Both the position numbers and the translations under genes were made by a program. DNA of 58,202 nt from a virus. Shown in pieces: positions 121-55,491 of this stretch. The notes below the pieces were generated by a model, which searched no databases, was not told the origin of the DNA, and worked only from the letters and a program-made list of their open reading frames with translations. Positions within the stretch are counted from its first letter, which is position 1, and every line of letters begins with the position of its first letter. The stretch is from positions 1 to 58,202 of the IMG/VR virus record IMGVR_UViG_3300005831_000020, one strand, 5' to 3'.

Positions 121-962
121 ATGATCAAATTATACATTGGAGCAGCAGTCTGCCATATATACAGGGATGGAGTACGCTGGTAGTCAACATAGTAAATAGT
201 AGGTCTACCGATTTGCGATTTATTGGGATAAGATAGATATTCATATCTGGATACCTCACTCATGATGGTATCCTGGCTTATACTATTAAAATAAAGTTCT
301 TCAATATCAAGTGTGTATCCCCCTGTTTCTTTAATTCTATATGCTCTTGCATAAATTGGATCAGGTACATAAAACCATGAAATCACGTGTGCTTTATATG
401 GATAAAGGGCAGGACAAGTAAAAACAGTAAACCAATTTATCGTATCTTGTGAGGCTTCTAAAACTAAGCTATATGGACGATTAGAAACATAACTTTGGAT
501 GCCGATAATGCTGATTTGCTTTGTAACTCCCGCTCCATAATCATAAGAAATATTGCCGTCTTGAACGTCTTGCCTACATCTTGTTGCCGGATTACCGTCA
601 AAAGCATAAGCAGCAATTCCTCCGCCGTTTCCATCATAAGTATTTGCCGTATTTGATTGCGGTGTTCCATTTAATTGTCTTACGTTGCCTCGCAAGAATA
701 CCTGAAATATTTTCTGTATATTACTTGGCAAAGGATAGGATGCTTGTCCCGGAGTTAAAAACACAGGTTCTAGTTTTAATGTCCATAAGTTGACGTTAGA
801 ATTAGTCCAATCACTTAAAATAAAATTGATAATATTAAGTGCCGAATTATATTGCTCGGCAGTAACCATGCTAAGCGGCATGCCGATTAATTCATAAGCT
901 TTTCTGATAATCAGCTCTCCTTTTATGTTGCTAAAGCTATAACTTCCACTAGTCGCCGGCAT
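1..962 (-). CDS. Virion structural protein (adaptor/tail-tubular-like) with an inserted discoidin (F5/8 type C)-like domain; 5' part of a gene that wraps the window ends
   Basis: ATG at 962. My hand translation is open to position 1 and continues from 58082 to a TAA at 57974 once the 120-nt overlap is collapsed (356 aa). The central segment AYAFDGNPATRC...ISYDYGAGV...IQSY...LEASQDTINWF...RAYRIKETGG...IEELYF looks discoidin-like. Flanks such as SRYEYLSYPNKSQIGRPTIYYVD resemble conserved podovirus structural proteins. Confidence 0.6.
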   Translation of the reverse strand, partial: MPATSGSYSFSNIKGELIIRKAYELIGMPLSMVTAEQYNSALNIINFILSDWTNSNVNLWTLKLEPVFLTPGQASYPLPSNIQKIFQVFLRGNVRQLNGTPQSNTANTYDGNGGGIAAYAFDGNPATRCRQDVQDGNISYDYGAGVTKQISIIGIQSYVSNRPYSLVLEASQDTINWFTVFTCPALYPYKAHVISWFYVPDPIYARAYRIKETGGYTLDIEELYFNSISQDTIMSEVSRYEYLSYPNKSQIGRPTIYYVDYQRTPSLYIWQTAAPMYNLIMYSGQSSIETLESYTQGIDIPSYFYMPLIYGVAEMLAEQY

Positions 963-3196: not shown

Positions 3197-3278
3197 TTTT
3201 TTTTACCTAATTATATTATAGCAAAAATACTGCTACTTTTGCAAATCGTACTACTATTTAGATTTGACAACTATCCCT

Positions 3279-19690: not shown

Positions 19691-19763
19691 TTTAGCTTTA
19701 TTACTTTATATTCATTCCTTAGCTAAAGTAATTATACCATAGGCTTTGGCTATCCTGATTTTC

Positions 19764-19979: not shown

Positions 19980-19981
19980 AA

Positions 19982-20566
19982 CTATTCTTTAATATTCTCC
20001 TTAAAAAACCTGATATTCTCTCTTGCCTCTTTCATCTTAGCGGCAATTTCCAACGCTTCCTCTCTACTCCTTTGCTGATAAGCTATTTTATCCTCCTTAG
20101 AACCGTTATTTTCTATGTTCATCTTAGTTATCGCTAAACCCCCTATCTGCTGCATCTGAGTAAAATCTATCCGTCCTTCTTTAAGTGCATTAAACCCGAT
20201 ATTGAATATTTCAGCAGGCGTTTGCTTGTCAGAAAACGTCAAACACACGGGTTGATTATCATTTTTGTATTCACTACCCCAGCCTCCTTTTGTCTTGAGG
20301 TAGAAGGTGATTGCATTTAAATTAACGGCCGTTAGCTCATCATCCTTAATAAACCTCATAAGCCTTGATGCAACATAGTTCTTGGCCTTAAATCTACCCC
20401 TGTTATAGGAGGACATTAAAGATTTATTCTCACCCTTAGTTCTTCTAAAATGCCTCGCAGACATTCCTAAAAAAACCGCAATCTCTTCCTGTGTATGACC
20501 ATGTGCCGCCAATGCTTCAACCTGTGCGGACTCCTCTGGCGTAATATCCCTTTTTGGTTTACTCAT
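19982..20566 (-). CDS. HTH DNA-binding protein resembling a small terminase subunit
   Basis: HTQEEIAVFLGMSARHFRR (HTH), then GRFKAKNYVASRL and AITFYLKTKGGWG. This pattern is common in phage TerS-like proteins. Confidence 0.4.
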   Translation of the reverse strand: MSKPKRDITPEESAQVEALAAHGHTQEEIAVFLGMSARHFRRTKGENKSLMSSYNRGRFKAKNYVASRLMRFIKDDELTAVNLNAITFYLKTKGGWGSEYKNDNQPVCLTFSDKQTPAEIFNIGFNALKEGRIDFTQMQQIGGLAITKMNIENNGSKEDKIAYQQRSREEALEIAAKMKEARENIRFFKENIKE

Positions 20567-21788
20567 TCAACAATACAGCTTTTTTATTGGTTTCTTTTTC
20601 CCACCTCTTTATTATAACATCAACATAAGCGGGGGATAATTCCATCATATAACAATTACGCTTTGACCTCTCGCAGGCAATTAACGTAGTGCCGCTACCG
20701 CCAAACGGATCGTATACACTCTCACCTTGCGCGGAGTTATTAAGTATAGGCCTTAGCATGCATTCAAGCGGCTTTTGCGTACCGTGTCCAAAGGTTTCCT
20801 CTTTGTTACTATTACCGAAGGAGTTATTATTTTCTATTTCCCATACGGTAGATTGATCACGTTTGCCCTGCCAGTTATGCTTCTTCCCTTTCCGCGCAGC
20901 ATACCATAAAGGCTCGTGCTTATTATGATAATCACCCCTGCTAATTACAAAATGCTGCTTATTCCAAAATATAAGGCTAATCAATTCAAAACCGCTACTT
21001 TCTATATTTTCGGCAAACTTATGAGTATACTTTGCGCTATGCCAGATATAAGCAATATCACCGGTAAATAATGAATAAGCGTCAGACCAGTCATATTTGT
21101 CATCATTTAAAACTTTACCTTTAGAGCGCTTACCGACTCCTAAATCGCATCCTTCGCGCCAGCTTGGGTCATACTCCACACCGTACGGCGGATCGGTTAC
21201 CATTAAAATCGGACTTGCCCCGGCCATTAGTTTTTCAACATGCTGCGGATTAGTACTATTCCCACACATTAAACGATGAGACCCAAGGAGGTAAATATCA
21301 CCAAGCCTAGCAGTAGCTTCTGCTGGGAGTTCTATTTCCTCTTCTTCCCCTATTTCTTCTAATATGGTTTTATCAAATATAGGCGTTAGCATTTCCTCAT
21401 CCATACCAAATGATACTAACTCCTCCAGATCAAATCGCTCCGTTAGCACAGCAAAATCATATTCCCCGAACGCTAGATTATCTCTAATGTTTAACCTGTC
21501 TATTTCGGCAGTTGTTAGTTTCCTACTCGGCTTTAACACTTCAATTTCAGTCTCATCATCGTAACCTGCCATATATAAAGCTTTTTTGCGCTGGTGGCCG
21601 CCGATAATGGTGTAATCGTTATCTACTATTATTCTTTGATGATACCCGTCCTCCTTTATATGAGCAGCTAGTTTATCCAGCATTTCCTTGGTTATCTTTC
21701 TTGGATTATTGGTATATTCTTTTAATTGAGATAACTTAATGCTTGCCTCCTGCCATGTGATAGTTTCATGATTACTTGGATAGTTCAT
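20559..21788 (-). CDS. ParB-like nuclease domain fused to an N6A/N4C DNA methyltransferase
   Basis: N-terminal NNPRKI...IIGGHQRKKA (ParB-like). VTDPPYG (motif IV) precedes DPFGGSGTT (motif I), the beta-class order. Confidence 0.85.
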   Translation of the reverse strand: MNYPSNHETITWQEASIKLSQLKEYTNNPRKITKEMLDKLAAHIKEDGYHQRIIVDNDYTIIGGHQRKKALYMAGYDDETEIEVLKPSRKLTTAEIDRLNIRDNLAFGEYDFAVLTERFDLEELVSFGMDEEMLTPIFDKTILEEIGEEEEIELPAEATARLGDIYLLGSHRLMCGNSTNPQHVEKLMAGASPILMVTDPPYGVEYDPSWREGCDLGVGKRSKGKVLNDDKYDWSDAYSLFTGDIAYIWHSAKYTHKFAENIESSGFELISLIFWNKQHFVISRGDYHNKHEPLWYAARKGKKHNWQGKRDQSTVWEIENNNSFGNSNKEETFGHGTQKPLECMLRPILNNSAQGESVYDPFGGSGTTLIACERSKRNCYMMELSPAYVDVIIKRWEKETNKKAVLLNE

Positions 21789-24464: not shown

Positions 24465-24735
24465 TGTTTTTGCTCCTTTTTCTTTTTTTCTTTTCCCATT
24501 GCTCGTCATAAAAACAAGCATCATTTCCAATATATTCTTCTTTAGTATTACTCCCCAATTTCCCCATATATTTAGCAACTTGATAAGTATTAACCTTATA
24601 ATATTTTGCTGCCTTATAGATGGCTAACTGGATTGGTACACGCTGTCCCATAAGATTCCTTGCAAACATAACAGCCTTAAACGTATCTTTATCTCTAATA
24701 TAAGGCATATGACTAAGATCAAATTTCTTACTCAT
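24457..24735 (-). CDS. Hypothetical protein
   Basis: 92-aa ORF overlapping its neighbours in the operon. Confidence 0.45.
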   Translation of the reverse strand: MSKKFDLSHMPYIRDKDTFKAVMFARNLMGQRVPIQLAIYKAAKYYKVNTYQVAKYMGKLGSNTKEEYIGNDACFYDEQWEKKKRKRSKNND

Positions 24736-24973
24736 TCTTTTGCTCCACTAGTTCTTTTAATTTTGATAAGTTGTTATCAATTTGTTTATCTAAGTACTTT
24801 GAAAACCAAAAACGAAGATCATTGTCTTTTTTGCGGTTAAATAAATACACGGCTTCAGTCACTACTCCTACATATTCATCAGTCCATAAAAGCTTATAAT
24901 CCTCCATATCCCGCCTTATTTCTTCTCTTAACATACGAATTGACGTGTATTTTCTAGCTTCTTGTTCGCTCAT
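24728..24973 (-). CDS. Hypothetical protein
   Basis: 81-aa ORF overlapping its neighbours in the operon. Confidence 0.45.
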   Translation of the reverse strand: MSEQEARKYTSIRMLREEIRRDMEDYKLLWTDEYVGVVTEAVYLFNRKKDNDLRFWFSKYLDKQIDNNLSKLKELVEQKNE

Positions 24974-30696: not shown

Positions 30697-30697
30697 T

Positions 30698-31835: not shown

Positions 31836-31975
31836 TAAAATATATTTAAAAAATTAGCTCTACTAAAATGTTTTGGTATTATGATATAAAAACAACTAAA
31901 TAGAAAATAGATCAAGTCTTTTAAACATACCTGTTGTCAGGTTTCCGCTGTTGATGATTAAATCAACACTATTAA

Positions 31976-33298
31976 ATGGCGTTATTAATTTATATGGAAG
32001 CAATAGTGAAGAATAAACTTTCTGAATCACAAAAAGAGGCTGTAGGACTTTTATCTATAGGAACTTTTTTAGAATATTTTGACGTAATGCTTTATATTCA
32101 CATGGCGGTACTGCTTAATGAGCTATTTTTTCCTAAAACCGACCCCTTCATTACCTCATTATTGGCTGCCTTTACTTTTTGTTCTACTTATGTTTTTAGA
32201 CCCTTAGGAGCATTAATTTTTGGATATATCGGGGATACACTTGGACGCAAAACAACAGTACTTCTAACAATGTTTATAATGGCTGGCTGTTGCACAGTTA
32301 TGGCTTTGTTACCAACATATGATAAAATAGGCATTACTGCCTCTTGTATAATGATTTTATGTCGTGTAATCCAAGGAATGGCAGCAATGGGTGAAGCTAT
32401 AGGGGCAGAGGTTTATATAACTGAATCAATCAAACCACCAATACAATACCCTATGGTAGGTTTAGTACCCGTGTTTGCTACTATAGGAGGAACACTAGCT
32501 TTAGGAGTTGGTTCATTTGTTACTAGTTTTACAACAGATTGGCGGTTTGCTTTTTGGTTTGGAGCAGCAATAGCAGTAATTGGTATGATAGCAAGAACTA
32601 CTTTGAGGGAAACCCCTGATTTTGCCGATGCAAAACGTGGAATACAAGAATTTATTAAACAAACTGATAGAGATCAAAAAATATTAGAAGGTAGTGTTAT
32701 TTGGAAAGAAAAGGTTAATAAAGTAACCGCTTTTTCTTTATTCATTATACAATGTGCTTATCCATTAATTTTTTATTTTGTTTATATCTATTGTGGAACA
32801 ATAATGAAAGACCAATTTGGTTTCACCCCAGGACAAATAATTAATCAAAACTTGATTGTTATTTTATTTGAACTGACGTCTATGTTAGTTATTACTTATT
32901 TAAGTTATAAAATATATCCTATAAAAATTCTTAAAGTACTTTTATCTATAACGACCATATTATTTTTGTTATGTCCTTATTTACTAAATAATATTAATTC
33001 ATCTTTTCAGTTATTATTACTACAAATATCGATGGTAAGTTTTGCTATTAGGCATTTTCCAGCAACACCTATTTTTTACAAGTATTTTCCTGTATTTAAG
33101 CGTTTTACTATGAGTTGTTTAATGTATGCTTTAGGACGGGCGGTAATGTTTGTAGTGACCTCTTTTGGATTAGTTTTTTTAATTGAATATTTTAATAATT
33201 GGGGAATATTATTGATTAGTATACCTATCATTTTAGGTTATAAATTTTCTCTATCACATTTTGAAAAGTTGGAAAAAGAAAGTGAACAGATTTATTAG
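31976..33298 (+). CDS. MFS transporter, ProP-like (proline/betaine type)
   Basis: About 12 TM segments. MFS motif A GYIGDTLGRKTT. 440 aa; the real start could be the internal MEAIV. Confidence 0.85.
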   Translation: MALLIYMEAIVKNKLSESQKEAVGLLSIGTFLEYFDVMLYIHMAVLLNELFFPKTDPFITSLLAAFTFCSTYVFRPLGALIFGYIGDTLGRKTTVLLTMFIMAGCCTVMALLPTYDKIGITASCIMILCRVIQGMAAMGEAIGAEVYITESIKPPIQYPMVGLVPVFATIGGTLALGVGSFVTSFTTDWRFAFWFGAAIAVIGMIARTTLRETPDFADAKRGIQEFIKQTDRDQKILEGSVIWKEKVNKVTAFSLFIIQCAYPLIFYFVYIYCGTIMKDQFGFTPGQIINQNLIVILFELTSMLVITYLSYKIYPIKILKVLLSITTILFLLCPYLLNNINSSFQLLLLQISMVSFAIRHFPATPIFYKYFPVFKRFTMSCLMYALGRAVMFVVTSFGLVFLIEYFNNWGILLISIPIILGYKFSLSHFEKLEKESEQIY

Positions 33299-37232: not shown

Positions 37233-38156
37233 ATGGAAAACAAACAAGAATGGTTAAGAGAACATTGGTTAAAAGAACGTAAAAATTATATCGGTGGCAG
37301 TGATTTAGGAGCTATCTGCGGCTTAAATCCTTATCGCTCTGCTCTTGACGTATACTTAGATAAAACCAGCGATGATATTAGCGAAGAGACTAACGCTGCA
37401 ATGAGGTGGGGCAACCTTTTAGAAGATGTGGTTGCTAAGGCTTATAGTGAGGATACTGGCTATGATGTGGAAATAGAGCCAAACACGATTTATCATCCTG
37501 AATATTCATTTTTAGCAGCTAATATTGATCGGTGGGCAGATAATAAAAGGCGTATTCTTGAATGTAAAACTGCTTCGTTTCTTAAAGCTAAAGAATGGGG
37601 CGACTTAGGGACTGACCAAATCCCCGAGTCATATCTTATTCAAAACGCTACATATTCGGCAGTTTGTAATGTTCCAGTAGTTGATACAGCAGTACTCATC
37701 GGCGGTCAAGATTTTAGAATATACACTTACGAGAGAAACAAGGAGCTAGAAGATAAGTTAATTAAGATAGCCTGTAATTTTTGGCATAACCATATAGAAA
37801 AAAGAATACCGCCTAAATGTGTTAATACTAGGGACACATTTAATTTATTTCCACAAAGTAACCATCACGAAATAGTAGCGGAAAGTAACATTTTGGAAAA
37901 ATGGGAACGACTTAAAGCTGCTAAGGAGGAAGAAGTACGGATACAAAGCACCATTGAGAAATTAAAGACCGATATACAGGAATTTATGAGAGATTATGAC
38001 GTGCTAATTGATGGTCAGGGGAACGTAATAGCTACATGGAAAAATACTGCTCCAAAGTCGCTGGTTGATGTGAAGAAGTTTAAGGAAAAGTATAGAGAAA
38101 TATACGAGAAATGTATAAACTACGGTAAGCAATCAAGAATGTTTTTAATTAAATAA
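37233..38156 (+). CDS. YqaJ-type (lambda Exo-like) recombination exonuclease
   Basis: N-terminal W...R.NYIGGSDLGAICGLNPYRSALDVY plus LECKT are YqaJ/PD-(D/E)XK hallmarks. Confidence 0.85.
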   Translation: MENKQEWLREHWLKERKNYIGGSDLGAICGLNPYRSALDVYLDKTSDDISEETNAAMRWGNLLEDVVAKAYSEDTGYDVEIEPNTIYHPEYSFLAANIDRWADNKRRILECKTASFLKAKEWGDLGTDQIPESYLIQNATYSAVCNVPVVDTAVLIGGQDFRIYTYERNKELEDKLIKIACNFWHNHIEKRIPPKCVNTRDTFNLFPQSNHHEIVAESNILEKWERLKAAKEEEVRIQSTIEKLKTDIQEFMRDYDVLIDGQGNVIATWKNTAPKSLVDVKKFKEKYREIYEKCINYGKQSRMFLIK

Positions 38157-39285: not shown

Positions 39286-39311
39286 AAAAAAGCATGGATG
39301 AAGATTGTTTC

Positions 39312-39320
39312 TGCTATAAT
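39312..39320 (+). promoter_or_regulatory. Extended -10 promoter element (candidate)
   Basis: TGcTATAAT. No good -35 element seen. Confidence 0.3.
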
Positions 39321-39360
39321 AAAAATAAAGCTTTTATTTTGTTATAGACTAGAGGCAAAA

Positions 39361-40968
39361 ATGCAAAATTACGATCCATATTTAAATACCTACAACTATC
39401 CTTATAACAGTTCTGATCCTTATAATCTAGCTTCTGATGGCGATAATCAAATGCCTGATTCTCGTTATGAAGATGGAGGTTATAGTGATCCCAATATGTC
39501 TTACAGTAATGCTTATGATAATACAGGAGCGCAATATTCCTTTAAAGAAGGAGGGTCTGTCGGTGATGATGACTTACCGAAGCTTGCCGATCTGATTCGA
39601 AGACACGGAAGAAACGGTGATACCGAGCTTGCTCATATTAATCCTATTGAAGCACAAATATTAAAAAGTTTAGGTGGTAGCGGTACGATAAATCCTGCTA
39701 CCGGTCTTCGTGAATACAGTTTTTGGACTAATCCATTTAAAGCAATAAAAAGTGTAATAGGAGGTGGAGCGGGAGCAGTTATCGGTAACATGGTGCTACC
39801 GGGAATAGGTGGCATTATCGGCGGCGCACTCGGTCAGGGAATACAGCACGCAGCAAGAGGCAAGAGTGCACTCGGCGGAGCTTTAAAAGGAGCCGGTATG
39901 GGCGCAGCTCTTCCATCTTTTGCATCTGCTATTGGCTCTGGACTAAGAAGCATTGGAGGAACGGCTCTTGGTTCTAGCCTTAGTAATTACGGCAGTACTA
40001 ATGCAATATTGCCTTCCCTCGGTCTTGGTGGCTCAGGTAGTAGCGGATTATTTGGGCTTGGAGGAAGTAATCCTTATGTAAATGGGGACTTAAGCAGCAT
40101 AACTGCACTTTCTTCAGGTATGGGCAGAGGACAAGGTCATGGTTTAGGTGTCAGTAGCGGGGATTATGCCGAGAACTATTATAATTACATGCTTGATAGA
40201 CAGAAAAAACAAGACAATATGGGTTTTACCGATAAATTACAAGACTATCTAACTGAGCCTAAGAATTTACTAACGCTTGGTACTACTGCCGCTCAATATT
40301 TAGGTAGAGAAAAACCAAAGAGTCCAGAGAAAATAGCAGAGGAAGAAAGAAGATATCGCAACGCTAGTCGTAAGACGATTGCTGAGGTTGAAGCTGATGA
40401 AGCTCTGGAAACCGCACGTGCCGATTTACAAAAAAAGCGGAAAAACAAGCAGTTAGATGAAGATATAAAGAACATGGGTCGTATTAATCGGCGCGTTGTA
40501 TCACCTGAGGAATTTGCAAGAACCGGTCGCTGGCTTGAGTATATGGATGATGAAGGCAATCCTGTTAGAATGAAAGGTGGCGGGAGCGCCCGTAGTCCTT
40601 ATGCTTATTTAACAGAAGAAACCTATTATCCTGCAAGTCCTATAGTTTATTTAAGTGGTGATAGCGGGGGGCAAGATGATAAGGTTAGAAGGGATTTACT
40701 AGATCGTTCTTATGTAATGCCAGCTGATGTAGTAGCTGATGCTGGAGATGGTAATTCTTTAGCAGGAGCAAAAAAGATTAAAGCATTAGTTTCTCATGGA
40801 GAAATGGAAATTAGTCCTCAGATTGTTAGTAAATTGGGTAACGGAGATAACGATTTAGGCGCTAAAAAATTAGACATGTTTGTAAAAAACATTCGCAAAC
40901 ATAAAAGAGGGGGAAAAGTAAATCTTCCGCCTCGTGCAAAGTCTTTAGAGAGTTATTTAAGGGGATAA
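39361..40968 (+). CDS. Large Gly-rich protein, possible internal virion or ejection protein
   Basis: I prefer the ATG at 39361 (MQNYDPY), with GAGG 6 nt upstream. Contains GDTELAHINPIEAQILKSLGGSGTINPATGLREY and Gly-rich hydrophobic stretches (IGGGAGAVIGNMVLPGIGGIIGGALG). Confidence 0.5.
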   Translation: MQNYDPYLNTYNYPYNSSDPYNLASDGDNQMPDSRYEDGGYSDPNMSYSNAYDNTGAQYSFKEGGSVGDDDLPKLADLIRRHGRNGDTELAHINPIEAQILKSLGGSGTINPATGLREYSFWTNPFKAIKSVIGGGAGAVIGNMVLPGIGGIIGGALGQGIQHAARGKSALGGALKGAGMGAALPSFASAIGSGLRSIGGTALGSSLSNYGSTNAILPSLGLGGSGSSGLFGLGGSNPYVNGDLSSITALSSGMGRGQGHGLGVSSGDYAENYYNYMLDRQKKQDNMGFTDKLQDYLTEPKNLLTLGTTAAQYLGREKPKSPEKIAEEERRYRNASRKTIAEVEADEALETARADLQKKRKNKQLDEDIKNMGRINRRVVSPEEFARTGRWLEYMDDEGNPVRMKGGGSARSPYAYLTEETYYPASPIVYLSGDSGGQDDKVRRDLLDRSYVMPADVVADAGDGNSLAGAKKIKALVSHGEMEISPQIVSKLGNGDNDLGAKKLDMFVKNIRKHKRGGKVNLPPRAKSLESYLRG

Positions 40969-40969
40969 T

Positions 40970-42916
40970 ATGAAAACACGAAACTTAAATGATCTCCGAG
41001 AACAAGCCTTAGCCGTTATTAATCGTGATGTAGGGCGAATGGTAGCTAACCCTACACCTGTATACAGAGGAAAGACTAGCGTTCCGATGTCTGCTTTAAC
41101 ACAGAGGAAACGTGCTTTAGAAGATCAGTTTGCGAGTAACCCTGCTCCTTATTCTGTAGAAGCAAGCGGTGTTTTTAACAGAACTCCGCAGGGTTTTAAT
41201 GAGGGGCAGAAAACCTCTTTACTGGATATACTCTCATCAGGCCAAAGAGGGGTGGGTAATACCGGATGGAGGATGATGGGAAAACAGTTTGGAGATAGAA
41301 CCGATAGTAGGCAAACCGGTTTTTATAATAAATTTGATAAGAACCTAAATAAGGGTCTTCCATTATCCCGTGTTGGTATAGATGCATTAAGCAGCGATGC
41401 ACAGGGTCTTGATTCTGAATATAATTCCGGACTTGGCAATAGTTTAAATGCTCTTGGTAATAGCGAAAAGGCAAAGAGGGCAGGACTTACTAATATGCTG
41501 GGGCAATTCGGCAATCAGCAGCATATATATTCGCATTTAGCAAATTCGGCAGATAAAAACAAGTACTACGAGGAATTAAATGCTCCAAAGCAAAAGATGA
41601 AGGCGTTATACAATATAGTAAATAGTGGTGGTGATCCGGGTAGCATGGGACCTTATGGTGAAGCAGCAGCAGTCAAGTTACTAGAAAAAGGACTAAATCT
41701 TTATAATAGCCCTACTCCTACTTACAGTGGTCAGCAACTTGCTAATGTGCCTGAAGAATTAGCAGTATCGCATCGTCTGCTAGGTGATTTAAGTCATGAT
41801 TATAATGATTCATCAAGGGAAGAAAGAGATAAGCTGTATAGCTCGTTAATGGGGCGAGAGAATGTTGGCTCGCGAGCTATAGGCGATTTACCTACAATTT
41901 ATGATCCACAAGTAAACAAGCTTGATGCTGATACCAAACGTCTTTTAAAAGCAGAAAAGGCTAGAATCAGTATGGATCATGAACGAAAAGGTACTTATGG
42001 ATCACAATCACATTTATCCCAAACCGAGGATGCTATTAATAGAATTGCTAAAAGCCGTTTTGGTAATAGAAACAATCTCTTGCAGGATGTACTTCGCGGA
42101 AGAATGAGCGGTTTAAATAAAAGTGACATGAATGATTTAAACCGGTTAAATAGTTTAGGTCAGCAAGGATTGTCCGAATATCAGGACGTACTTGGTAAGA
42201 TTAGCGGAATGAACCAGCTCGGAGTAGACAAATGGCTAAATACGCAAGATGAGTTAAACCAGAGGAGGGAGCGATTTGAAGAAGAGAGGAATCAGGAATG
42301 GCCGCAAATAGCGGGTAGTGATATTGTCAAATACAACGTAAGCCCGGAAATCAGCAGTATTTTTGCCAATCCCAATATTAGCAGTAATCCCTCTGTTTAC
42401 ACGCCGTCTTTAAGGCCAAATATTCATGCACTTGCACAATACGCCCAAACAGTGCCGGTCAGTCATAGTGAGACGGAGCTTGAGAGTAATTTAAATCAGG
42501 ATATGGGAGGTATCAAGAATTATGCTGATTTTGAGAATACCAAATTACAGAGAAAAAGAGAAGATGAGGTAAGGCGGCAGGCAGAGGCAAGGCATCTAGC
42601 GTCAAGAATGGCAGAAGAAAATCGGCAAGCTCAAATTAGGAAAGCTAAGGAATTAAAAATAGCTGAAGAAAATAGACAAGCATTGCTTAAAAGAAAAGCT
42701 TTAGCTGAAAGCAAATTAAAAGAAAGAGATATTGCACTCAAAAGGCAACAAGCTGAATTAGCTAAAGTAAGCGGTAGATATGACATGATGCGCGAACTTG
42801 GGATGGATTATAGTAATTATAATAGAGATAAAGATAGAATAGCCGTGCTGCAACCAAGGATACAGAACATATTAGATAGTATGTCTTACTGGAAAAAATA
42901 TGCTAATTTAATTTAA
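40970..42916 (+). CDS. Large hypothetical protein, possible internal virion protein
   Basis: 648 aa with a C-terminal Arg/Lys/Glu coiled-coil. Tightly packed against its neighbours. Confidence 0.5.
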   Translation: MKTRNLNDLREQALAVINRDVGRMVANPTPVYRGKTSVPMSALTQRKRALEDQFASNPAPYSVEASGVFNRTPQGFNEGQKTSLLDILSSGQRGVGNTGWRMMGKQFGDRTDSRQTGFYNKFDKNLNKGLPLSRVGIDALSSDAQGLDSEYNSGLGNSLNALGNSEKAKRAGLTNMLGQFGNQQHIYSHLANSADKNKYYEELNAPKQKMKALYNIVNSGGDPGSMGPYGEAAAVKLLEKGLNLYNSPTPTYSGQQLANVPEELAVSHRLLGDLSHDYNDSSREERDKLYSSLMGRENVGSRAIGDLPTIYDPQVNKLDADTKRLLKAEKARISMDHERKGTYGSQSHLSQTEDAINRIAKSRFGNRNNLLQDVLRGRMSGLNKSDMNDLNRLNSLGQQGLSEYQDVLGKISGMNQLGVDKWLNTQDELNQRRERFEEERNQEWPQIAGSDIVKYNVSPEISSIFANPNISSNPSVYTPSLRPNIHALAQYAQTVPVSHSETELESNLNQDMGGIKNYADFENTKLQRKREDEVRRQAEARHLASRMAEENRQAQIRKAKELKIAEENRQALLKRKALAESKLKERDIALKRQQAELAKVSGRYDMMRELGMDYSNYNRDKDRIAVLQPRIQNILDSMSYWKKYANLI

Positions 42917-42918
42917 TT

Positions 42919-44106
42919 ATGATTATGGAAGAAGAAATATTAAATCGGGTAGGAGCACTTCCAGAGAGAAGGAATCCTTTTGATGAGGGAATAGCGAAAG
43001 CAGTTAGCAGCACCCGAAGCAATTTAGGGATGAGCAGGGATCAGGAGCATAGAGCGATAAATAATGCGTTGCTTGCTCTTGGTAATGGTTTAGCAAACGA
43101 ACCTGTCATGCGTGGATTTAAAAACAATTTAGGAGTTATAGGGCGGGCAATGAATCCGGCTTTGGCGGCTTATAACACTAGCGAGGATGCTGCTTTAAAA
43201 GAAAACGAACAACTAGCTAATCAAATCCTGCAGCATCAAAGAGCGGAGCAGGCTTTAGCAGACGCTCGGGAAGAAAAAGTTTGGCATCGTAAATTTCAAG
43301 AGAAGCAGCTGGAAGAAACTAAAAGAGCCCATAATTTACTCGATAATTTTAGAAAAGAAGAATTACAATATAAAAAAAATAAGTACGGCTCTGATTCAGA
43401 ATTAGATAGATTAGCTCCAAAAATCAGGACGGATTCGGCCTTTGATAAAGTCGGACTTCAAGCAAGAAAATCAGCTGAATTTTATGAGGAAGTTAAAGAG
43501 ATGAATCATAAGTATCAGGATTTAAAAGATACAATGAAAAAGGCCGGAATTGATACTACTAATCCTTTTGTATTTAATAAGGCCCTTCGAAACGCATCAG
43601 GTTTTTTAAGCTCATTTACTAAAGACCCAATTCAAAGAGAGATAGCTAGTAAATATGCTGATTTAGCTGCTGCAAATAAACGAGTGATGCAGACTGCTGA
43701 AAAAGCTTTAAAAGACGGAGCATTAACTAATTTTACAGTTAAGTACGGGGATGATAACAAGCTGTATCCATCTTTTGGTAGTGAGCCTTATGACGAGTAC
43801 GAAAGAAAATTAAAAACAATGCTAAATGATGCAAGTACGGGTTATGAATCATCAAGTTTAGCATTACAAACGGGGAGGCATATTGATAAGCACAATTATG
43901 CAAGAATCAAGGAATTAGAACATTCTATGCGAATAGGAGTACCTACCGATCAAATAGGTGATATGTCTTCAAATCAGGGGAGTATTGATGTAGCTCCGGA
44001 AGAGGAATGGATTACTATCCAAGGACCGTCAGGTCAAACAGAAGAAATCTATTTTGAAGATGCACCGAAGTTTTTAAATAGGCCAGGATATACTAGAGTT
44101 AAATAA
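42919..44106 (+). CDS. Hypothetical protein, possible internal virion protein
   Basis: 395-aa helical ORF, tightly packed in the operon. Confidence 0.5.
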   Translation: MIMEEEILNRVGALPERRNPFDEGIAKAVSSTRSNLGMSRDQEHRAINNALLALGNGLANEPVMRGFKNNLGVIGRAMNPALAAYNTSEDAALKENEQLANQILQHQRAEQALADAREEKVWHRKFQEKQLEETKRAHNLLDNFRKEELQYKKNKYGSDSELDRLAPKIRTDSAFDKVGLQARKSAEFYEEVKEMNHKYQDLKDTMKKAGIDTTNPFVFNKALRNASGFLSSFTKDPIQREIASKYADLAAANKRVMQTAEKALKDGALTNFTVKYGDDNKLYPSFGSEPYDEYERKLKTMLNDASTGYESSSLALQTGRHIDKHNYARIKELEHSMRIGVPTDQIGDMSSNQGSIDVAPEEEWITIQGPSGQTEEIYFEDAPKFLNRPGYTRVK

Positions 44107-44107
44107 T

Positions 44108-46315
44108 ATGAGTGATTTTGAGGGAGCTAGAATTAGACCAAAAAGTAACGAATTTAATATAGGAAAAAACGATTTTGAAGGGGCTAGAATTCGTCTTAAA
44201 AATCCTACTTATCAAAATACTGTAGATGAAAGAGAAGCTGTAGATAATGATGAATATCCTTATTTAATAAACAAGACAGCAGATGTAATCTCAAGATATC
44301 CTTTTGATTTAGTACATGATCTTGCATATGCAGGAGAAAGGGGAGCAAAATGGCTAGCCGGAAAATTAGCCGATGATTTACAGGAGGAACCAAAACCTAT
44401 TAATTTATTTGGTCATGAATTTGTTCCGACCAGGAATGATTGGTCTCGGAAGTTTAGAGAATTTAGTCAAAAACCTGACTATTTTAGCGAAGAAAATATT
44501 GGTCGTCCCTCCAATCGGATTACTAGACCAATATTTAAGGAAGCTGGATTTAATTTAGATGCAGAAGCACCAGATCAAATACAAGGGATGATAGGTCATG
44601 GTATAGATTTTGCAGTTCCCGGAGCATGGACAAAGAAAGCAAAACTTGCAAATATGGCTATTGAAGGAGCAACAGGGCTTGGAAGTGGATTACTACAAGA
44701 ATATGGAGGTGTTAATCCAATAGTTGCCGATCTTGCTACTTATGCGGGAAGACGGGGTGCTTCTAGAACTAATAGTGCTTTGAGAGACCATTTTAATCCA
44801 ATCAAAAGAGGAGAAAAAAAGGTTAGTGCTTTATTTAAGGATGCTAATAAAGAAAAAGGGCTTGATAACTTAATGAACTTTAATCCTGAGGGGCTTGATG
44901 TTATTCCTGTTACGGCAGAAGTAGCTTTACATAATGATATATCGAACTTACATAATGCTTATGCTCCAACTCTTACTGAAATACAGAGTAAAATGACTAC
45001 TAATGATAAGATTTTACGTAAAAAAACAGATGAGATTGGAAATAGTCTAGATCCAAAAGCTATAGAAGTTGGGGAAGCAGGAAGAGAATTAATTAATCAA
45101 AATTATCGTAATTTGAAAAAACTAAGAAAGAAAAAAGCTACCCCTTATTATGAAGCATTAAAACAAGAGAATTATTATCCTGTTGAAAATTTTAAAAATT
45201 CTATAAAAGAGGATTTATCAAATACAGTAGGCGACACAAAAAAAACTCTAAAAAAGTTTTCAAATTCTCTTAAAGAAAACCACAAAGAAGTTTTAGAATC
45301 ATTAAAGGAAGAATTATCCTTGCTTCAAAAAGAAAATAAAACAAATTTAGATTTAAATTTATTTCCTCAAAAAGTACGAGAAGAATTATTATTACAAGAC
45401 CCAGCTTTGTATAGAATAGAAGAATTAAAAAATCAAATTAGTTTATTAGAGAGTGATAAATATAGACCAGTTATTATTGATGAACAAATTAAAGAAATTA
45501 ATAAAAAAATAAAGAATAATACTAAGACTGGAAAAGACGGACAAAATGCTTTATTGAAGAAACAAGTAGAAGCTTTACAGGCAGATTTAGAAGCAACGCC
45601 TGAAGGATTGGCTCATAGGAAAGTTTATAGGGAACATTCGCTACCGATTAATCAAATCAAAGAAGATAGTTTACTTAGTAAATTTGTAAAGAAAAAAGAT
45701 TCAGATTTTAAAGAACCTGTTGATGGATTAGCAGATTATATTTTTAGTGCTCCACAAGAAAGCGTAAAGCGTTATATGGCTCAAGTAAAAGGAAGTAATG
45801 CTGAAAATCTAACTAAAGCTTACGGAAGAAAAGAATATCTTGGTAAAGCAGATGATTTTGAAGGTGGTTTACCAACTTACGATAAATCAAGCAAATTTTT
45901 AAAAAACAAAGCAGCTCAAATGGAAGCTATCTATTCCCCTGAAGAACTAGGAGTATTTGAGCAAATTAACGACTACTTAAAAAATAGAGCTATTGTTAGC
46001 GGTGGTAACTCTGCTTTTGGTTCGGCAACAGAGCCAAAAGGGAGAATAACACAAAGGGTAAAAAAATATTTAGGAGAAGAAAATTTAACTCCTTATACTG
46101 CTTGGGGTGATCTCCCTGGTATTAGAAAAATTCCTCTTATACCACAACGTTTAAAAGGAATAACAGTCCCAAATCGAAATTATGAAATATTTGAGAAGGC
46201 ATTGACTGATCCTATATATGCTAGGGATTTATTAACTAAAGATTATGGTGTTAAATATACTAAACCAAATTATTTTCCTACCTTGTATAACGTTTTAAAT
46301 GGAAATCAGGAATAA
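44108..46315 (+). CDS. Large hypothetical protein, possible internal virion protein
   Basis: 735 aa. The N-terminus has a tandem DFEGARIR(P/L)K repeat. Confidence 0.5.
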   Translation: MSDFEGARIRPKSNEFNIGKNDFEGARIRLKNPTYQNTVDEREAVDNDEYPYLINKTADVISRYPFDLVHDLAYAGERGAKWLAGKLADDLQEEPKPINLFGHEFVPTRNDWSRKFREFSQKPDYFSEENIGRPSNRITRPIFKEAGFNLDAEAPDQIQGMIGHGIDFAVPGAWTKKAKLANMAIEGATGLGSGLLQEYGGVNPIVADLATYAGRRGASRTNSALRDHFNPIKRGEKKVSALFKDANKEKGLDNLMNFNPEGLDVIPVTAEVALHNDISNLHNAYAPTLTEIQSKMTTNDKILRKKTDEIGNSLDPKAIEVGEAGRELINQNYRNLKKLRKKKATPYYEALKQENYYPVENFKNSIKEDLSNTVGDTKKTLKKFSNSLKENHKEVLESLKEELSLLQKENKTNLDLNLFPQKVREELLLQDPALYRIEELKNQISLLESDKYRPVIIDEQIKEINKKIKNNTKTGKDGQNALLKKQVEALQADLEATPEGLAHRKVYREHSLPINQIKEDSLLSKFVKKKDSDFKEPVDGLADYIFSAPQESVKRYMAQVKGSNAENLTKAYGRKEYLGKADDFEGGLPTYDKSSKFLKNKAAQMEAIYSPEELGVFEQINDYLKNRAIVSGGNSAFGSATEPKGRITQRVKKYLGEENLTPYTAWGDLPGIRKIPLIPQRLKGITVPNRNYEIFEKALTDPIYARDLLTKDYGVKYTKPNYFPTLYNVLNGNQE

Positions 46316-46847: not shown

Positions 46848-47333
46848 TTAAAATAAATTAACTTCAATTTTCTCTTGGTAATTTAGTACAAAATCAAGTA
46901 GGGCAAGACTATCGGCTTCATTATCGTCAATGGGAGAAAATCCCTTGTTTTTAACAGCTGTTATTACGCTAGTCTTAGGAGCGTTACCTTTACCTGTAAT
47001 ATGTTTCTTAATTGTTCCAACAGGTATGCCGCTGTAGGGTATCCGGTGATGTTCGCACCAAGCGGTCAGGTGAGCAAGGAATCCGCCGTATTTATGGGCA
47101 GCATCTACTCCTTTATGGGCTCTTACTTCCTCAAAATAGATTGCATCAATATTCCCTAAAGTCTGCTTAAAATCGGTAAGCCATTGTTTAAAACGTAAAA
47201 AAGGCATGCCGCCGCCTTCAAACCTCCCGGTTTTAAAGCTAGCTGTTCCGGAAGTTATGTTGCCTGCTGCCTCGCGAGTAGCCCAGCCGGTAGTAGTACC
47301 AAGGTCTAGAGCCATAATTATCGGCATATTCAT
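46848..47333 (-). CDS. RuvC-like Holliday junction resolvase
   Basis: IMALDLGTTTGWA carries the first catalytic Asp. YFEEV and a C-terminal DDNEADSLALL follow the RuvC-fold motif order. Confidence 0.7.
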   Translation of the reverse strand: MNMPIIMALDLGTTTGWATREAAGNITSGTASFKTGRFEGGGMPFLRFKQWLTDFKQTLGNIDAIYFEEVRAHKGVDAAHKYGGFLAHLTAWCEHHRIPYSGIPVGTIKKHITGKGNAPKTSVITAVKNKGFSPIDDNEADSLALLDFVLNYQEKIEVNLF

Positions 47334-47488
47334 CTTGAGTTTTCTTTAGTTAGACCAACATCTATCTCTATTTCTTCCTCTATGACTTTTTCTGCGATTT
47401 CTTCAACGGGATTATCAAAGCCGAACCAATATACCGAGCTAATACCGACCACGGCTGCAAAAATAAGAGCTAAGATGTGCATAATCAT
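47330..47488 (-). CDS. Small membrane protein (52 aa)
   Basis: Hand translation gives MIMHILALIFAAVVGISSVYWFGF.... An ATGA overlap joins it to the RuvC-like gene start. Confidence 0.35.
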   Translation of the reverse strand: MIMHILALIFAAVVGISSVYWFGFDNPVEEIAEKVIEEEIEIDVGLTKENSR

Positions 47489-47567
47489 TTTTCTTTTTAA
47501 TTATATCACGAAAGTCTTATAAGCTTTAAAAATCGTATTTTTCTAAAACGGATGGGGGATCGATGCA

Positions 47568-52468: not shown

Positions 52469-52528
52469 ATGGTTCCTTTTTCTTTTTTATTATAACATAT
52501 AAGTGCTTATCACTCTTAAAAATCGTAT

Positions 52529-52556
52529 AAATGTAATTATTTTAAAAATTACATTT
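52529..52556 (-). terminator. Hairpin overlapping the patatin stop codon (terminator or processing site)
   Basis: AAATGTAATT-N8-AATTACATTT, a perfect 10-bp stem. On the minus strand it is followed by ATACGATTTTT. Confidence 0.4.
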
Positions 52557-53624
52557 TTGAATAAATTGCTGTATCTTTATGGCGTCCTGTCCATATTGTA
52601 GGTTTGACTCAGATTTTAAATATGCTATAGCTTCCGGTGTTGGGTTATCGAGTTTACTTAATTCCTGATCCGCAAGAAAACGTTGGAATCTGTAGTAAGA
52701 TAGATTATTTGTTGCGCCTTTATATAAAGACATCAGTTTAAATTGCAGTTCTACTGCGTCCGTTGCTCCATTTAGCGTTAAATTCAAACTATTAGCAAGT
52801 AATCCGAGTCCATTATTAGGGGCTACTTTTAGGTTACCTGATGTTGTCGTTATTTCGATATCAGGATCAGAATATCCGGTACCGACTGAAAGAATGCAAG
52901 TTGCAACATTCTGCGGGAATAATATATTAGAGAACGCATAACCAAGGCTAGTTGGGTTGTTTTGATACAAACCGCCATCAATAAAGAAGGTATCAGAAGG
53001 CATGCCTTGGATAAGAGTCGGGCGAAAAAATACCGGCGCTGCACCTGTTGCAATAGCAACATCAATACAAGTATAATTTTGTCCGGTAGTAAAACCCGGA
53101 ATTAAAACATTAGAAAATTGATAATACTGGCTACTTGTAACATCGCCGTATGGAAAATTAACATTATCCGTGCTAGGACCAGTTCCGCCTTGAAACCCTA
53201 CAGCAGTAATCAAAGTATTAGTTTTTAATTGAAACATGCGAGTAGTCCCTAAAATAGGACTTAAAGCATCTCGCAGAGGTTGCTGATTGTAGATATAAGG
53301 ATCAACTCCCGGAACTGCCAGCACAGTACCTAAAGTAGCAGACCCTGCCGGACCAAGAGGTTGCAAAGGGTTCACTCCTGCTCTAATAGTAAAAATGCTC
53401 GTTGCATTGGTCGTTAGTAAATTAATAACGTCGGTAGGCGATAGACCAAGTGAGTAAGCTAAGCCTTGAATACCGCCAATACTCGTTCCGCAAATAATAT
53501 CAAAATACTTCCATAATTCATTACCTTTAATCCCGGCATCATTACAAAAATTCTCTAGAAACGTAGCAGAGAACAACCCTCTAATACCGCCTCCATCTAA
53601 AGATAAAATGCGTATTACTTGCAT
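52542..53624 (-). CDS. Patatin-like phospholipase
   Basis: LSLDGGGIRGLF (oxyanion hole), GTSIGG (GxSxG nucleophile) and FIDGGLYQNNP (catalytic Asp, DGG). Confidence 0.85.
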   Translation of the reverse strand: MQVIRILSLDGGGIRGLFSATFLENFCNDAGIKGNELWKYFDIICGTSIGGIQGLAYSLGLSPTDVINLLTTNATSIFTIRAGVNPLQPLGPAGSATLGTVLAVPGVDPYIYNQQPLRDALSPILGTTRMFQLKTNTLITAVGFQGGTGPSTDNVNFPYGDVTSSQYYQFSNVLIPGFTTGQNYTCIDVAIATGAAPVFFRPTLIQGMPSDTFFIDGGLYQNNPTSLGYAFSNILFPQNVATCILSVGTGYSDPDIEITTTSGNLKVAPNNGLGLLANSLNLTLNGATDAVELQFKLMSLYKGATNNLSYYRFQRFLADQELSKLDNPTPEAIAYLKSESNLQYGQDAIKIQQFIQKCNF

Positions 53625-53636
53625 AATTTCTATTGA

Positions 53637-54050
53637 TTAATGCAATTCCTCTGCTGCTACCTCATGCTGATTAAGCGGTATGATTTTACAAATAGCCTGA
53701 CAATCAGTTATAAAGATATTTAAAACTGTTGTTAAATCAGATCCTTTTGGGACGTCTTGCGGAATCTTACTAATTAGATCATTAGCATCATCAATTGACT
53801 GATTTAAACCTGATTTTAATGCTACATACCATATTTTTTGAGTTTTTGGGTCAGAAGCAGTAAAATAATTAAAAAGCTGTCCTCCAATCTGATTAATAAA
53901 CTGAACATCCGATTGTATACTCGCGTATATACTCGGATCATCAAAGACGCTACTTACAAGGCTATTAAAATAAGATAGATCGACCTGGGTACTGGTAATT
54001 AACTTTAAGTCATTTAGGTTGGTACTTATATCTTTTATGGCTGTATTCAT
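53637..54050 (-). CDS. Hypothetical helical protein upstream of the patatin gene
   Basis: 137-aa ORF, 12 nt upstream of the patatin start. Confidence 0.5.
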   Translation of the reverse strand: MNTAIKDISTNLNDLKLITSTQVDLSYFNSLVSSVFDDPSIYASIQSDVQFINQIGGQLFNYFTASDPKTQKIWYVALKSGLNQSIDDANDLISKIPQDVPKGSDLTTVLNIFITDCQAICKIIPLNQHEVAAEELH

Positions 54051-54081: not shown

Positions 54082-55491
54082 TTATAAACCTTTAAGTTTT
54101 TGTTCCAGAATATCTACTTTCCCGGTTAACTCCTGAATGGCTAAAATTGCGTAGCAAAGAATAGTGTTATAATTAACACCTAGCGAAGGTATATGAGCCG
54201 GTTTTTCTTTTTTTGATAAATCCAGCGGTTTATATAGGTTAGTAGCATTATCGAAAATCTCTGCTACTTCTTCGGCTATGACTCCTATTTGCAATTCATT
54301 CATTTTAAGCTGTTTCCGCATTCTTTTTTTAGTAGAGTCGGTTTTATTAATCGGATATTTTAAGCCGTAAGAGTAAATATTAAGCTTATTTAATCTTTGC
54401 AGATAATCTTTGTGTTCTTTCTTACGTATGCTATGTTTTTTGTTTTTAGAGCAAGGGACAATTTGTCCGGAGCTGTTAATATAGGCTACATAACTGCTCA
54501 TGCTTGCGTTATCTTCATCGGTAAAAATAAACCCAAGAGTATCCATTGGATTGATAAACTGCATAAAATCGCCGTTCATGACAATAGAGGAGGTCTCACC
54601 GCCGGCATTGGTTTCTATAATGGTTGAGGTGATTGAGTTATAGACGTTTAATCCTCTTATATCCAAAAAATTACTGGCAGGACGGATATAGCAATTATAA
54701 GAAGGATCATAAAACGAGGTTTTACCGCTATTACCGGCAATATCCATCCGTTTGACGCCGGCAGTACCGAATTTTAACGCGGCAGTTCCGGTCGCCCAAG
54801 CGTAGGCCTCATTTGTACTATTATTAAAGCCGAACTCTGCATTAGTAGTACCGTTGTTCTGCACGATAAGCCCTGCAGCTATGGCAGCCGGATTAGTATT
54901 ATTGACAATAAACCCGCCGGCATTAGTAACATTTGATGCATTGGTGGTAAACTGACGGGGATTTTCCCAAGTACCGTTGCCGTTTAAAAATAAGGAGCTA
55001 TTTGCAGGGTAGCCGTTTAAACGGTTGATATTTAATTGACCGGTGGTATTTGTATTAATGTCAAAGACCTTACTATCGACATAAGCTTTATTAGAACCGT
55101 CAGTATTATTTACGGGACTCGGAACATTAATAATTTTATTGCCGTTAACATCCAGGTTTTTATAGAATAAAAATTGGTCTGAACCGTTTTCATTAAAAGT
55201 CATTAACTTATTGCCGACAATAGCAGAGTTTTGCTGACTTTGCTGATATTGCAGAGAACTTAAATGAAACATCCCGCTAGTGTTGGTAGAATCAGAATAA
55301 AATCCAACTCTATATCCTTTCTCGTCAATATTTAAAAAATCCAGATTAAGGTTAATAGGATTAGAATCTACAGGTGTTGTAGCATTTTCCAGTCTAAAAG
55401 AACCGTTTGGTTGCTCAAACAAGAACTTCTGCGTATCTCCTAGAATTTTTAAATCCGGCTTTATTCCTCCGACAATTACAGTGGTTGCCAT
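54082..55491 (-). CDS. Tail fibre or spike protein with a C-terminal intramolecular chaperone (peptidase S74-like) domain
   Basis: The C-terminal ..LNKLNIYSYGLKY......ELQIGVIAEEVAEIF... ending in a coiled-coil matches the S74 chaperone-domain pattern. Confidence 0.65.
   Translation of the reverse strand: MATTVIVGGIKPDLKILGDTQKFLFEQPNGSFRLENATTPVDSNPINLNLDFLNIDEKGYRVGFYSDSTNTSGMFHLSSLQYQQSQQNSAIVGNKLMTFNENGSDQFLFYKNLDVNGNKIINVPSPVNNTDGSNKAYVDSKVFDINTNTTGQLNINRLNGYPANSSLFLNGNGTWENPRQFTTNASNVTNAGGFIVNNTNPAAIAAGLIVQNNGTTNAEFGFNNSTNEAYAWATGTAALKFGTAGVKRMDIAGNSGKTSFYDPSYNCYIRPASNFLDIRGLNVYNSITSTIIETNAGGETSSIVMNGDFMQFINPMDTLGFIFTDEDNASMSSYVAYINSSGQIVPCSKNKKHSIRKKEHKDYLQRLNKLNIYSYGLKYPINKTDSTKKRMRKQLKMNELQIGVIAEEVAEIFDNATNLYKPLDLSKKEKPAHIPSLGVNYNTILCYAILAIQELTGKVDILEQKLKGL

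Follow-up and report, generated by a model that had tools for sequence, protein, structure and literature searches.

A gene for a CapV-type patatin phospholipase next to tail-fibre genes is a core, probably late gene in a family of 58-kb phages

The patatin gene and its relation to CapV

The window analysed here is the whole 58,202-nucleotide (nt) stretch of the IMG/VR virus record IMGVR_UViG_3300005831_000020. On its minus strand, among genes for tail fibres, it encodes a patatin-like phospholipase A of 360 amino acids (aa) that is of the CapV type, CapV being a phospholipase effector of the cyclic-oligonucleotide-based anti-phage signalling system (CBASS). This patatin is a core late gene of a large, undescribed family of 58-kb phages: we found 1353 homologues with E ≤ 1e-5, relatives are encoded on at least 210 IMG/VR viral contigs, and the ratio of non-synonymous to synonymous substitution rates (dN/dS) against relatives lies between 0.03 and 0.15, which indicates strong purifying selection. 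Among 50,697 deposited phage genomes only MAnkyphage, a phage of Megaira, and two records of the Wolbachia phage WO contain a match. The features of the window that are discussed below are collected in Table 1.

An earlier note, made from the letters of the window only, had described a patatin with three catalytic signatures. The open reading frame (ORF) indeed matches the Pfam family Patatin (PF01734) with E 1.6e-20 and carries the motifs D10-G-G-G-I-R-G16, G46-T-S48-I-G-G51 and D216-G-G. In an alignment of 18 sequences, reaching down to 32% identity, G11-G13, G16, G46, T47, S48, G50, D216 and G217 are invariant; the glycine-rich oxyanion loop (G-G-G-x-[KR]-G) is present, with R or K at position 15 throughout. 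The predicted catalytic residues Ser48 and Asp216 align to S58 and D192 of AbCapV. An inactive dyad, which the note had named as a finding that would speak against its proposal, is thus not what the alignment contains: the active site is intact and, as far as sequence can tell, the enzyme looks active. The AlphaFold model (predicted local distance difference test, pLDDT, 83; predicted template-modelling score, pTM, 0.87) shows an alpha/beta fold that Foldseek matches to CapV, CapE, Pat17 and iPLA2-beta, all with E ≤ 1e-14. A hydropathy scan found neither a signal peptide nor a transmembrane segment. In close relatives the protein has 362 aa and ends in NFQK before the stop codon; in the window a C-to-T change creates a TAA stop two codons earlier (52542-52550).

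The match to the PADLOC profile of the CBASS 'Effector Phospholipase' (PDLC00758) is of full length (patatin residues 3-355, E 6.1e-51), and a profile of the family searched against the PDB retrieved CapV/CBASS lipases with E-values of 2e-43 to 1e-36, compared with 1e-21 for plant patatin. The best Foldseek match of the predicted fold is AbCapV (8zr9; E 4e-22, template-modelling score, TM, 0.73/0.77); it is followed by plant patatin, CapE and iPLA2-beta. The similarity to ExoU and VipD is low (TM 0.33-0.42), and an effector of the ExoU/VipD kind was rejected because of this fold. A cellular relative from Hymenobacter, 29% identical, adjoins a gene for a cGAS/DncV-like nucleotidyltransferase (CD-NTase; E 1.7e-87), and its locus is therefore a genuine CBASS operon. 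The neighbours of the window patatin are fibre genes and not a CD-NTase operon. No cyclase family was found in Pfam, PHROGs and PADLOC scans of the window ORFs, and PADLOC yielded neither a CD-NTase nor any further match among eight unannotated ORFs tested; a complete CBASS system on the phage was rejected because no cyclase was found.

CapV breaks down bacterial membrane phospholipids from within the cell, and AbCapV contacts cyclic GMP-AMP (cGAMP) through residues including K149, D159 and E207 (PMC12480259). In our phmmer alignment, which is of modest quality in this region, F147 corresponds to Y, K149 to S171, D159 to G181 and E207 to F, and R279 is unaligned. Three of these four protomer-A contact residues (F147, K149, D159 and E207) appear in this alignment not to be conserved in the window patatin, a comparison that applies to cGAMP, since CapV clades differ in their ligands. 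Ahead of the cGAMP site the window patatin has an insertion of 16 residues relative to AbCapV. The protein belongs to the CapV structural clade and stands outside any CBASS system.

Fibre-gene context and the neighbouring 137-aa gene

The patatin abuts tail-fibre genes in every lineage examined, in three arrangements. In loci of the window type it comes after variable fibres and before the 202-aa gene; in four related loci (L066, L070, L074 and L077) it lies directly ahead of the fibres; and in L067, L078, L089 and MAnkyphage it is placed between terminase-side genes and a fibre of 1100-1500 aa. MAnkyphage-type loci are L067, L078, L088, L089 and L001. The patatin stop and the start of the next fibre gene overlap by 4 nt in L066, L074, L077, L078, L088, L089 and MAnkyphage. 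Furthermore, backbones that are otherwise near-identical carry two deeply divergent patatin alleles, with ~99% and ~37% identity to the window protein. The best match in GTDB genomes is 31% identical and was found on a contig of a Rickettsiaceae metagenome-assembled genome (MAG) that is itself phage-like: here the patatin is followed by a 1178-aa fibre, and a lysozyme gene is near.

In the window the late genes follow one another on the minus strand as terminase, portal, a GroES-like gene, several unknown genes, capsid and genes of 356 and 146 aa; then come fibres of 366, 244 and 469 aa, the 137-aa ORF, the patatin and the 202-aa and 553-aa genes; an SU10-type adaptor, genes of 567 and 93 aa, the 52-aa transmembrane protein and a RuvC-like resolvase complete the series. 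This order bears out the earlier placement of the lipase in line with late structural genes. Both flanking genes had also been taken for tail fibres, which is well founded for the 469-aa ORF with its Peptidase_S74 domain. The fibre identity of the 202-aa ORF is weaker: phrog_1959 is a PHROG of unknown function, and the assignment also draws on shared motifs. Homologues of the 202-aa ORF come after the patatin in most window-type loci. The next ORF, of 553 aa, has a PTL_trimer match.

A bipartite motif, TACGATTT(T/G)..A-N~15-TGnTATAAT, occurs in three minus-strand copies, each in an intergenic gap of the late region, and the copies are kept at the same positions in most window-type loci. Judged from this pattern the motif is probably a late promoter or activator site specific to the phage; a generic promoter/terminator scan gave nothing above chance. 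The copy ahead of the capsid gene probably marks the beginning of the unit whose last gene would be the patatin. If the motifs are promoters, the patatin appears to be the last gene of a capsid-to-fibre late unit, because a promoter-like motif follows directly after its stop. The 10-bp hairpin at this stop, to which the earlier note had drawn attention, exists, and the C-to-T change described above also completes its loop. However, a functional role does not follow: in folding, the region does not stand out from shuffled versions of itself (z = -1.27; 18 of 200 fold as well or better), the close relatives L013, L024 and L030 have lost the 3′ arm with no compensating change, and the terminator scan did not pick the hairpin up. 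We rejected the hairpin as a terminator or regulatory element and consider it probably a chance product of AT-rich sequence.

Table 1. Features of the patatin locus and of other parts of the late region in the window
Feature	Position	Strand	Basis and remarks
Patatin-like phospholipase A, CapV-type, 360 aa	52542..53624	-	Pfam, PADLOC, AlphaFold/Foldseek, dN/dS
Soluble six-helix-bundle protein, 137 aa	53637..54050	-	AlphaFold, homologue distribution, dN/dS
Tail fibre, 469 aa, C-terminal S74 intramolecular-chaperone domain	54082..55491	-	PF13884, E 8.3e-7, residues 349-416; PHROG tail-fibre families
AT-rich 10-bp hairpin, patatin TAA stop in loop	52529..52556	-	arms 52547-52556 and 52529-52538
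Promoter-like motif TACGATTTTTAAGAG-N15-TGTTATAAT	52485..52527	-	directly downstream of patatin stop; conserved
Fibre-like protein, 202 aa	51860..52468	-	first gene past the promoter-like motif; weak phrog_1959 match
Tail-fibre or spike protein, 553 aa	50223..51884	-	precomputed Pfam match PF26696 (PTL_trimer) on the Joint Genome Institute (JGI) copy
Second copy of promoter-like motif	47496..47537	-	upstream of holin-like gene
Holin-like candidate, 52 aa, N-terminal transmembrane helix, acidic tail	47330..47488	-	hydropathy scan, homology
RuvC-like resolvase, 161 aa	46848..47333	-	phrog_159, E 3e-25; fills the lysozyme slot of L053/L032
Third copy of promoter-like motif	3211..3250	-	upstream of a 261-aa gene and the capsid gene

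The 137-aa ORF has an AGGAG ribosome-binding site and stops 12 nt upstream of the patatin; its position and the all-helical bundle of its AlphaFold model (pLDDT 80, pTM 0.75) agree with the small helical ORF described in the earlier note. It has 97 homologues and is under purifying selection (dN/dS 0.11-0.19). We found no match to it in Pfam, PHROGs or PADLOC, no Foldseek match with E ≤ 0.001 in the PDB or BFVD, and no transmembrane segment in the hydropathy scan or the AlphaFold model. Its distribution was counted over 87 related patatin loci: a homologue lies immediately upstream of the patatin in 37, another ORF intervenes in three, and in two (L074 and L077) the homologue lies 3.7 kb downstream of the patatin, past the fibre genes. 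The other 45 loci contain no homologue and keep the patatin (62-88% identical or of the divergent type). Because it is absent from so many loci and lies apart from the patatin in L074 and L077, the 137-aa ORF is part of a variable fibre cassette and not an obligate partner of the lipase. The suggestion that it serves as chaperone or immunity partner was dropped on the same counts, and a holin partner was rejected along with it, given the lack of a transmembrane segment and of any family or fold match.

Genome, probable host and lysis genes

The first and last 120 bases of the window are identical (1-120 and 58083-58202), and closing the circle recovers a 356-aa structural gene across the junction (57974 -> 962, minus strand); the window thus represents an entire phage genome, closed into a circle of ~58.1 kb. 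The small ORFs 125..259, 581..793 and 57974..58129 are artefacts of the cut. The phage is podovirus-like. A JGI contig of 58,181 bp (3300001373 YBMDRAFT_10053597) encodes proteins identical to those of the window, and the outer-membrane protein of the window is present too on a JGI contig of 58,202 bp. At the DNA level the patatin locus has no match among deposited phages. The nearest deposited phage is the Megaira polyxenophila phage MAnkyphage_25.80 (OP381185.1), which has in common with the window an exonuclease (79% aa identity), a 231-aa protein (74%), the resolvase and a RecT/Bet-like annealing protein (annotated Bet in OP381185.1). The exonuclease segment (37263-38152, plus strand) is 80% identical in nucleotides over 890 bp to positions 19449-20338 of OP381185.1 and constitutes the sole nucleotide-level match to any deposited phage. 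A similarity of this kind suggests that two phages which are otherwise different, but infect the same host group, exchanged the segment recently.

Contigs related to the window were binned as 'Rickettsiales bacterium' or 'Rickettsiaceae bacterium', several proteins resemble those of MAnkyphage, and homologues of the Pom-type outer-membrane protein carry the labels Alphaproteobacteria and Rickettsia sp. For these reasons we infer that the phage most likely infects a member of the Rickettsiaceae, such as Megaira, that lives as an endosymbiont in aquatic protists. A chlamydial host, which the Pfam name 'Pom' might suggest, is not supported by these labels. The outer-membrane beta-barrel itself (PF17251, E 4.8e-19) is encoded in an island at 10759-14102 (plus strand) that has a GC content of 0.31-0.32, compared with ~0.40 in the flanks, which lie on the opposite strand; a 739-aa ORF without matches is found in the same island, which is likely to be surface-modifying cargo. 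Another stretch of low GC (29269-33298, plus strand) encodes a 475-aa protein resembling sodium:solute symporters of the SSF family and a 440-aa transporter of the major facilitator superfamily (MFS; PF07690, E 5e-23). Both are unusual in a phage and may aid the metabolism of an intracellular host. Genes on the minus strand at 14159-14734, 18110-18712 and 20559-23014 encode a serine resolvase/invertase, a ParA-like ATPase, a ParB-methyltransferase fusion and a second ParB-like nuclease, a set that suggests a plasmid-like or otherwise non-integrating carrier state. The GroES-like co-chaperonin (5838-6251, minus strand; phrog_3188, E 2.5e-10) is encoded within the head-morphogenesis block, and its homologue in L002 has a Cpn10 Pfam match.

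The earlier note had recognised no endolysin or holin. Hidden Markov model searches of nearly all ORFs of at least 80 aa against Pfam and/or PHROGs likewise found no lysozyme, amidase, peptidase-type endolysin, holin or spanin family, hence no standard endolysin/holin cassette, and the precomputed Pfam matches on the JGI copy of the genome contain no lysis family either. With the MAnkyphage lysozyme as query, phmmer gave nothing in the six-frame translation (best E 0.1), nor did a search with the MAnkyphage protein annotated as a 'lytic transglycosylase', which itself has no Pfam match. These PHROGs, Pfam, JGI and phmmer results thus gave no sign of a hidden endolysin. A crude lipobox scan, which is a weak method, returned no credible o-spanin: its candidates were a 43-aa antisense ORF (24709..24840) and an internal start (20559..20759) within the methyltransferase gene 20559..21788 (minus strand).

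As to a holin, the picture is different. The 52-aa ORF is 58% identical to a 69-aa gene of L053 that overlaps the start of a T4-type lysozyme. A small protein with one transmembrane segment, the motif DNP(V/I)EE and an acidic tail directly precedes the lysozyme in L053, L032, L089 and MAnkyphage; gene pairs of this kind lie at 5724-6370 in L053, 15591-16236 in L032, 21492-22180 in L001 and 19823-20496 in L089, and in L032 the two genes are fused or frameshifted together. The lysozyme of MAnkyphage is a bona fide Phage_lysozyme (PF00959, E 1.8e-36) with homologues in the window-type relatives L053 and L032 and also in L089 and L068. In the window and most relatives, the gene after the one-transmembrane gene is RuvC-like and not a lysozyme. 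By homology, then, the window genome contains a holin-like candidate and lacks a recognisable lysozyme, so that the earlier reading stands for the endolysin and fails for the holin. That the patatin takes the place of both, as the earlier note implied, is not supported, since L053, L032, L089 (a Rickettsiaceae-MAG contig) and MAnkyphage have the patatin together with the holin-like/lysozyme cassette, the latter at a separate locus. Since relatives keep both, the patatin is not a simple endolysin substitute. Two tempting inferences are corrected in this way: the small neighbouring ORF as a dedicated partner, and the patatin as a simple replacement of an endolysin.

Four large ORFs on the plus strand (39298-46315; 556, 648, 395 and 735 aa) have no Pfam match and no meaningful PHROG match. 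In L074 their homologues come after the fibre genes on the same strand, for which reason they are probably internal virion or ejection proteins. A cryptic muralytic domain, if there is one, would most likely be found in these ORFs.

Possible roles of the patatin and comparison with known systems

We tentatively favour, as the most likely of the roles considered, the view that the patatin is a late membrane-breaching egress (lysis-accessory) enzyme of phages of intracellular Rickettsiales, without counting this as established. The view is based on the membrane action of CapV, on the lack of an endolysin and of spanins, on the restriction of such patatins, among deposited phage genomes, to phages of intracellular Rickettsiales and on the lysis/egress role proposed for the phage WO patatin (Bordenstein & Bordenstein 2022, PMC9203015). 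It matches the non-canonical lysis or egress factor that the earlier note had listed among its options, and this option is still the best reading. The patatin would accumulate late in infection and hydrolyse membrane phospholipids; its first target would be the bacterial inner membrane, attacked from the cytoplasmic side as by CapV. After the 52-aa holin-like protein, or some other factor, has made the envelope permeable, the enzyme could go on to the outer membrane and to the eukaryotic membranes around the bacterium. In this role it needs no 137-aa ORF and is not a one-for-one replacement of an endolysin.

Several points weigh against an egress enzyme. We infer the late timing and the target membranes, as we do the role itself. 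In L053, L032, L089 and MAnkyphage the patatin lies outside the lysozyme cassette and next to the fibres, and where its stop overlaps the start of the next fibre gene, as in several lineages, a virion or assembly component fits equally well. If the host has peptidoglycan, virions would need more than a lipase to get out, and the searches yielded no muralytic enzyme. Moreover, enzymes of the CapV type stay auto-inhibited until they bind a cyclic nucleotide; the scans revealed no cyclase gene in the window, and most of the aligned cGAMP contacts appear not to be conserved.

The same observations can be read in favour of a virion-associated entry enzyme, i.e. a phospholipase on or in the particle, fibre-linked or ejected with the DNA, that opens a lipid barrier: the bacterial outer membrane, or the phagosomal membrane of an engulfing protist on the way to a bacterial host in the cytosol. 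Adjacency to fibre genes in every lineage examined, the 4-nt overlaps in L066, L074, L077, L078, L088, L089 and MAnkyphage, the exchange of divergent alleles (37% versus 99%) among near-identical backbones, as seen for fibre genes, and the separation from the holin-like/lysozyme cassette wherever the cassette exists all fit this possibility, and restriction to phages of intracellular bacteria suits a need to cross eukaryotic membranes. However, the protein has no extra domain that could anchor it to a virion, as cellular CapV homologues align over the whole length, and it has neither a signal peptide nor a transmembrane segment. Compact phage genomes often show such adjacency and overlaps, and in other phages lysis genes often come after fibre genes. 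We regard entry as a possible but doubtful function. A more specific form of it, in which a captured CBASS suicide phospholipase was turned into a fibre-linked virion enzyme that crosses eukaryotic membranes, for example in phagosome escape, to reach bacteria in the protist cytosol, strikes us as rather unlikely. If true, the fibre-linked patatin would do for a bacteriophage what the capsid-tethered phospholipase A2 does for parvoviruses, and would directly solve the 'two-fold cell challenge' formulated for phage WO.

Two further roles are less likely. The earlier note had considered a moron effector, that is, a secreted phospholipase that would act on the eukaryotic host to the benefit of the bacterium, like Rickettsia Pat1/Pat2 or ExoU, with the 137-aa protein as chaperone or immunity factor. 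The probable host is an intracellular Rickettsiaceae bacterium, a group whose patatins are known to contribute to virulence (cited in PMC9203015), and the genome carries other host-like cargo in the Pom-like outer-membrane protein and the SSF and MFS transporters. Nevertheless, the patatin is a core gene, syntenic within the structural operon of at least 210 contigs and not part of a cargo island; the scan found no promoter or terminator of its own; the fold is CapV-like rather than ExoU/VipD-like, without a cofactor-binding C-terminal domain; the nearest genome match is just 31% identical and sits on a phage-like contig; and the 137-aa ORF is missing from 45 of the 87 loci. Such an effector is unlikely. 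We give still less credit to a captured CBASS effector engaged in conflict or defence, which would sense cyclic nucleotides made by a CD-NTase of the host or of a rival and act in superinfection exclusion, abortive killing or as a nucleotide sink. The strong full-length similarity to CBASS phospholipase effectors and the cellular relatives in real CBASS operons are in its favour. Against it are the lack of a CD-NTase or other PADLOC match in the eight unannotated ORFs tested, the lack of defence-type or cyclase families in the Pfam/PHROGs scans and the apparent lack of conservation of the cGAMP-contact residues; the invariant catalytic residues speak against a pure sponge, and a site among late structural genes is atypical of defence cargo.

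The egress enzyme that we favour has its closest precedent in the 'patatin-based lytic cassette' of phage WO (PMC9203015). WO, too, infects an intracellular Rickettsiales bacterium and has its patatin beside tail genes, and its genome lacks a canonical endolysin, a likeness that does not extend to L053, L032, L089 and MAnkyphage among the relatives of the window. The WO patatins are also among the only three phage records that match the window patatin. The differences are considerable: the proteins are 25-27% identical, and the podovirus-like window phage is of an unrelated type and has no eukaryotic association module. Unlike in the WO cassette, no ankyrin Pfam match was found among the patatin neighbours or the other window ORFs scanned. 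In WO a small holin-like gene with one transmembrane segment lies directly ahead of the patatin, a place occupied in the window by a soluble helical protein, with the holin-like gene 5 kb downstream; and relatives of the window pair the patatin with a genuine lysozyme. MAnkyphage_25.80 (OP381185.1) resembles the window in that its patatin directly abuts a tail-fibre gene. However, the patatins are 28% identical, the genome has 38 kb and a different structural module, and MAnkyphage has its own Phage_lysozyme, preceded by a homologue of the 52-aa transmembrane protein.

For the means by which phages of obligate intracellular bacteria exit and enter through eukaryotic membranes, the WO patatin has been the main candidate. 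The WO and MAnkyphage patatins were already annotated, and a lytic role had been proposed. In the literature searched we found no description of the CapV relationship, of a 58-kb phage family with patatin as a core gene, of the constant coupling to fibre genes or of the coexistence with a holin-like/lysozyme cassette. The patatin module is not peculiar to WO, being core in the 58-kb family and in a MAnkyphage-like group, both tied to aquatic Rickettsiaceae.

ExoU, VipD and Rickettsia Pat1/Pat2 share the patatin catalytic core and are used by intracellular or pathogenic bacteria on eukaryotic membranes; they differ in their extra C-terminal domains and their need for eukaryotic cofactors, and match poorly in structure (TM 0.33-0.42). 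Mycobacteriophage LysB is a late phage esterase/lipase that acts on an outer lipid barrier besides a holin and an endolysin. The analogy is functional only: its fold is unrelated (cutinase-like), its substrate is mycolyl-arabinogalactan, and its gene is located inside the lysis cassette. The closest match in both sequence and structure, over the full length, is CapV (AbCapV, PDB 8zr9; PMC12480259), with the same Ser/Asp dyad, the same Arg in the glycine-rich loop and the same build as a compact single-domain cytoplasmic enzyme. The window patatin differs from it by the lack of an adjacent CD-NTase or other CBASS genes, by its place inside a phage structural operon and by Ser, Gly and Phe at the positions of the AbCapV contacts K149, D159 and E207. 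This kinship links the phage enzyme to a defence effector whose membrane-destroying mechanism is known in structural detail, and it suggests an evolutionary route by which a bacterial anti-phage weapon was co-opted by phages.

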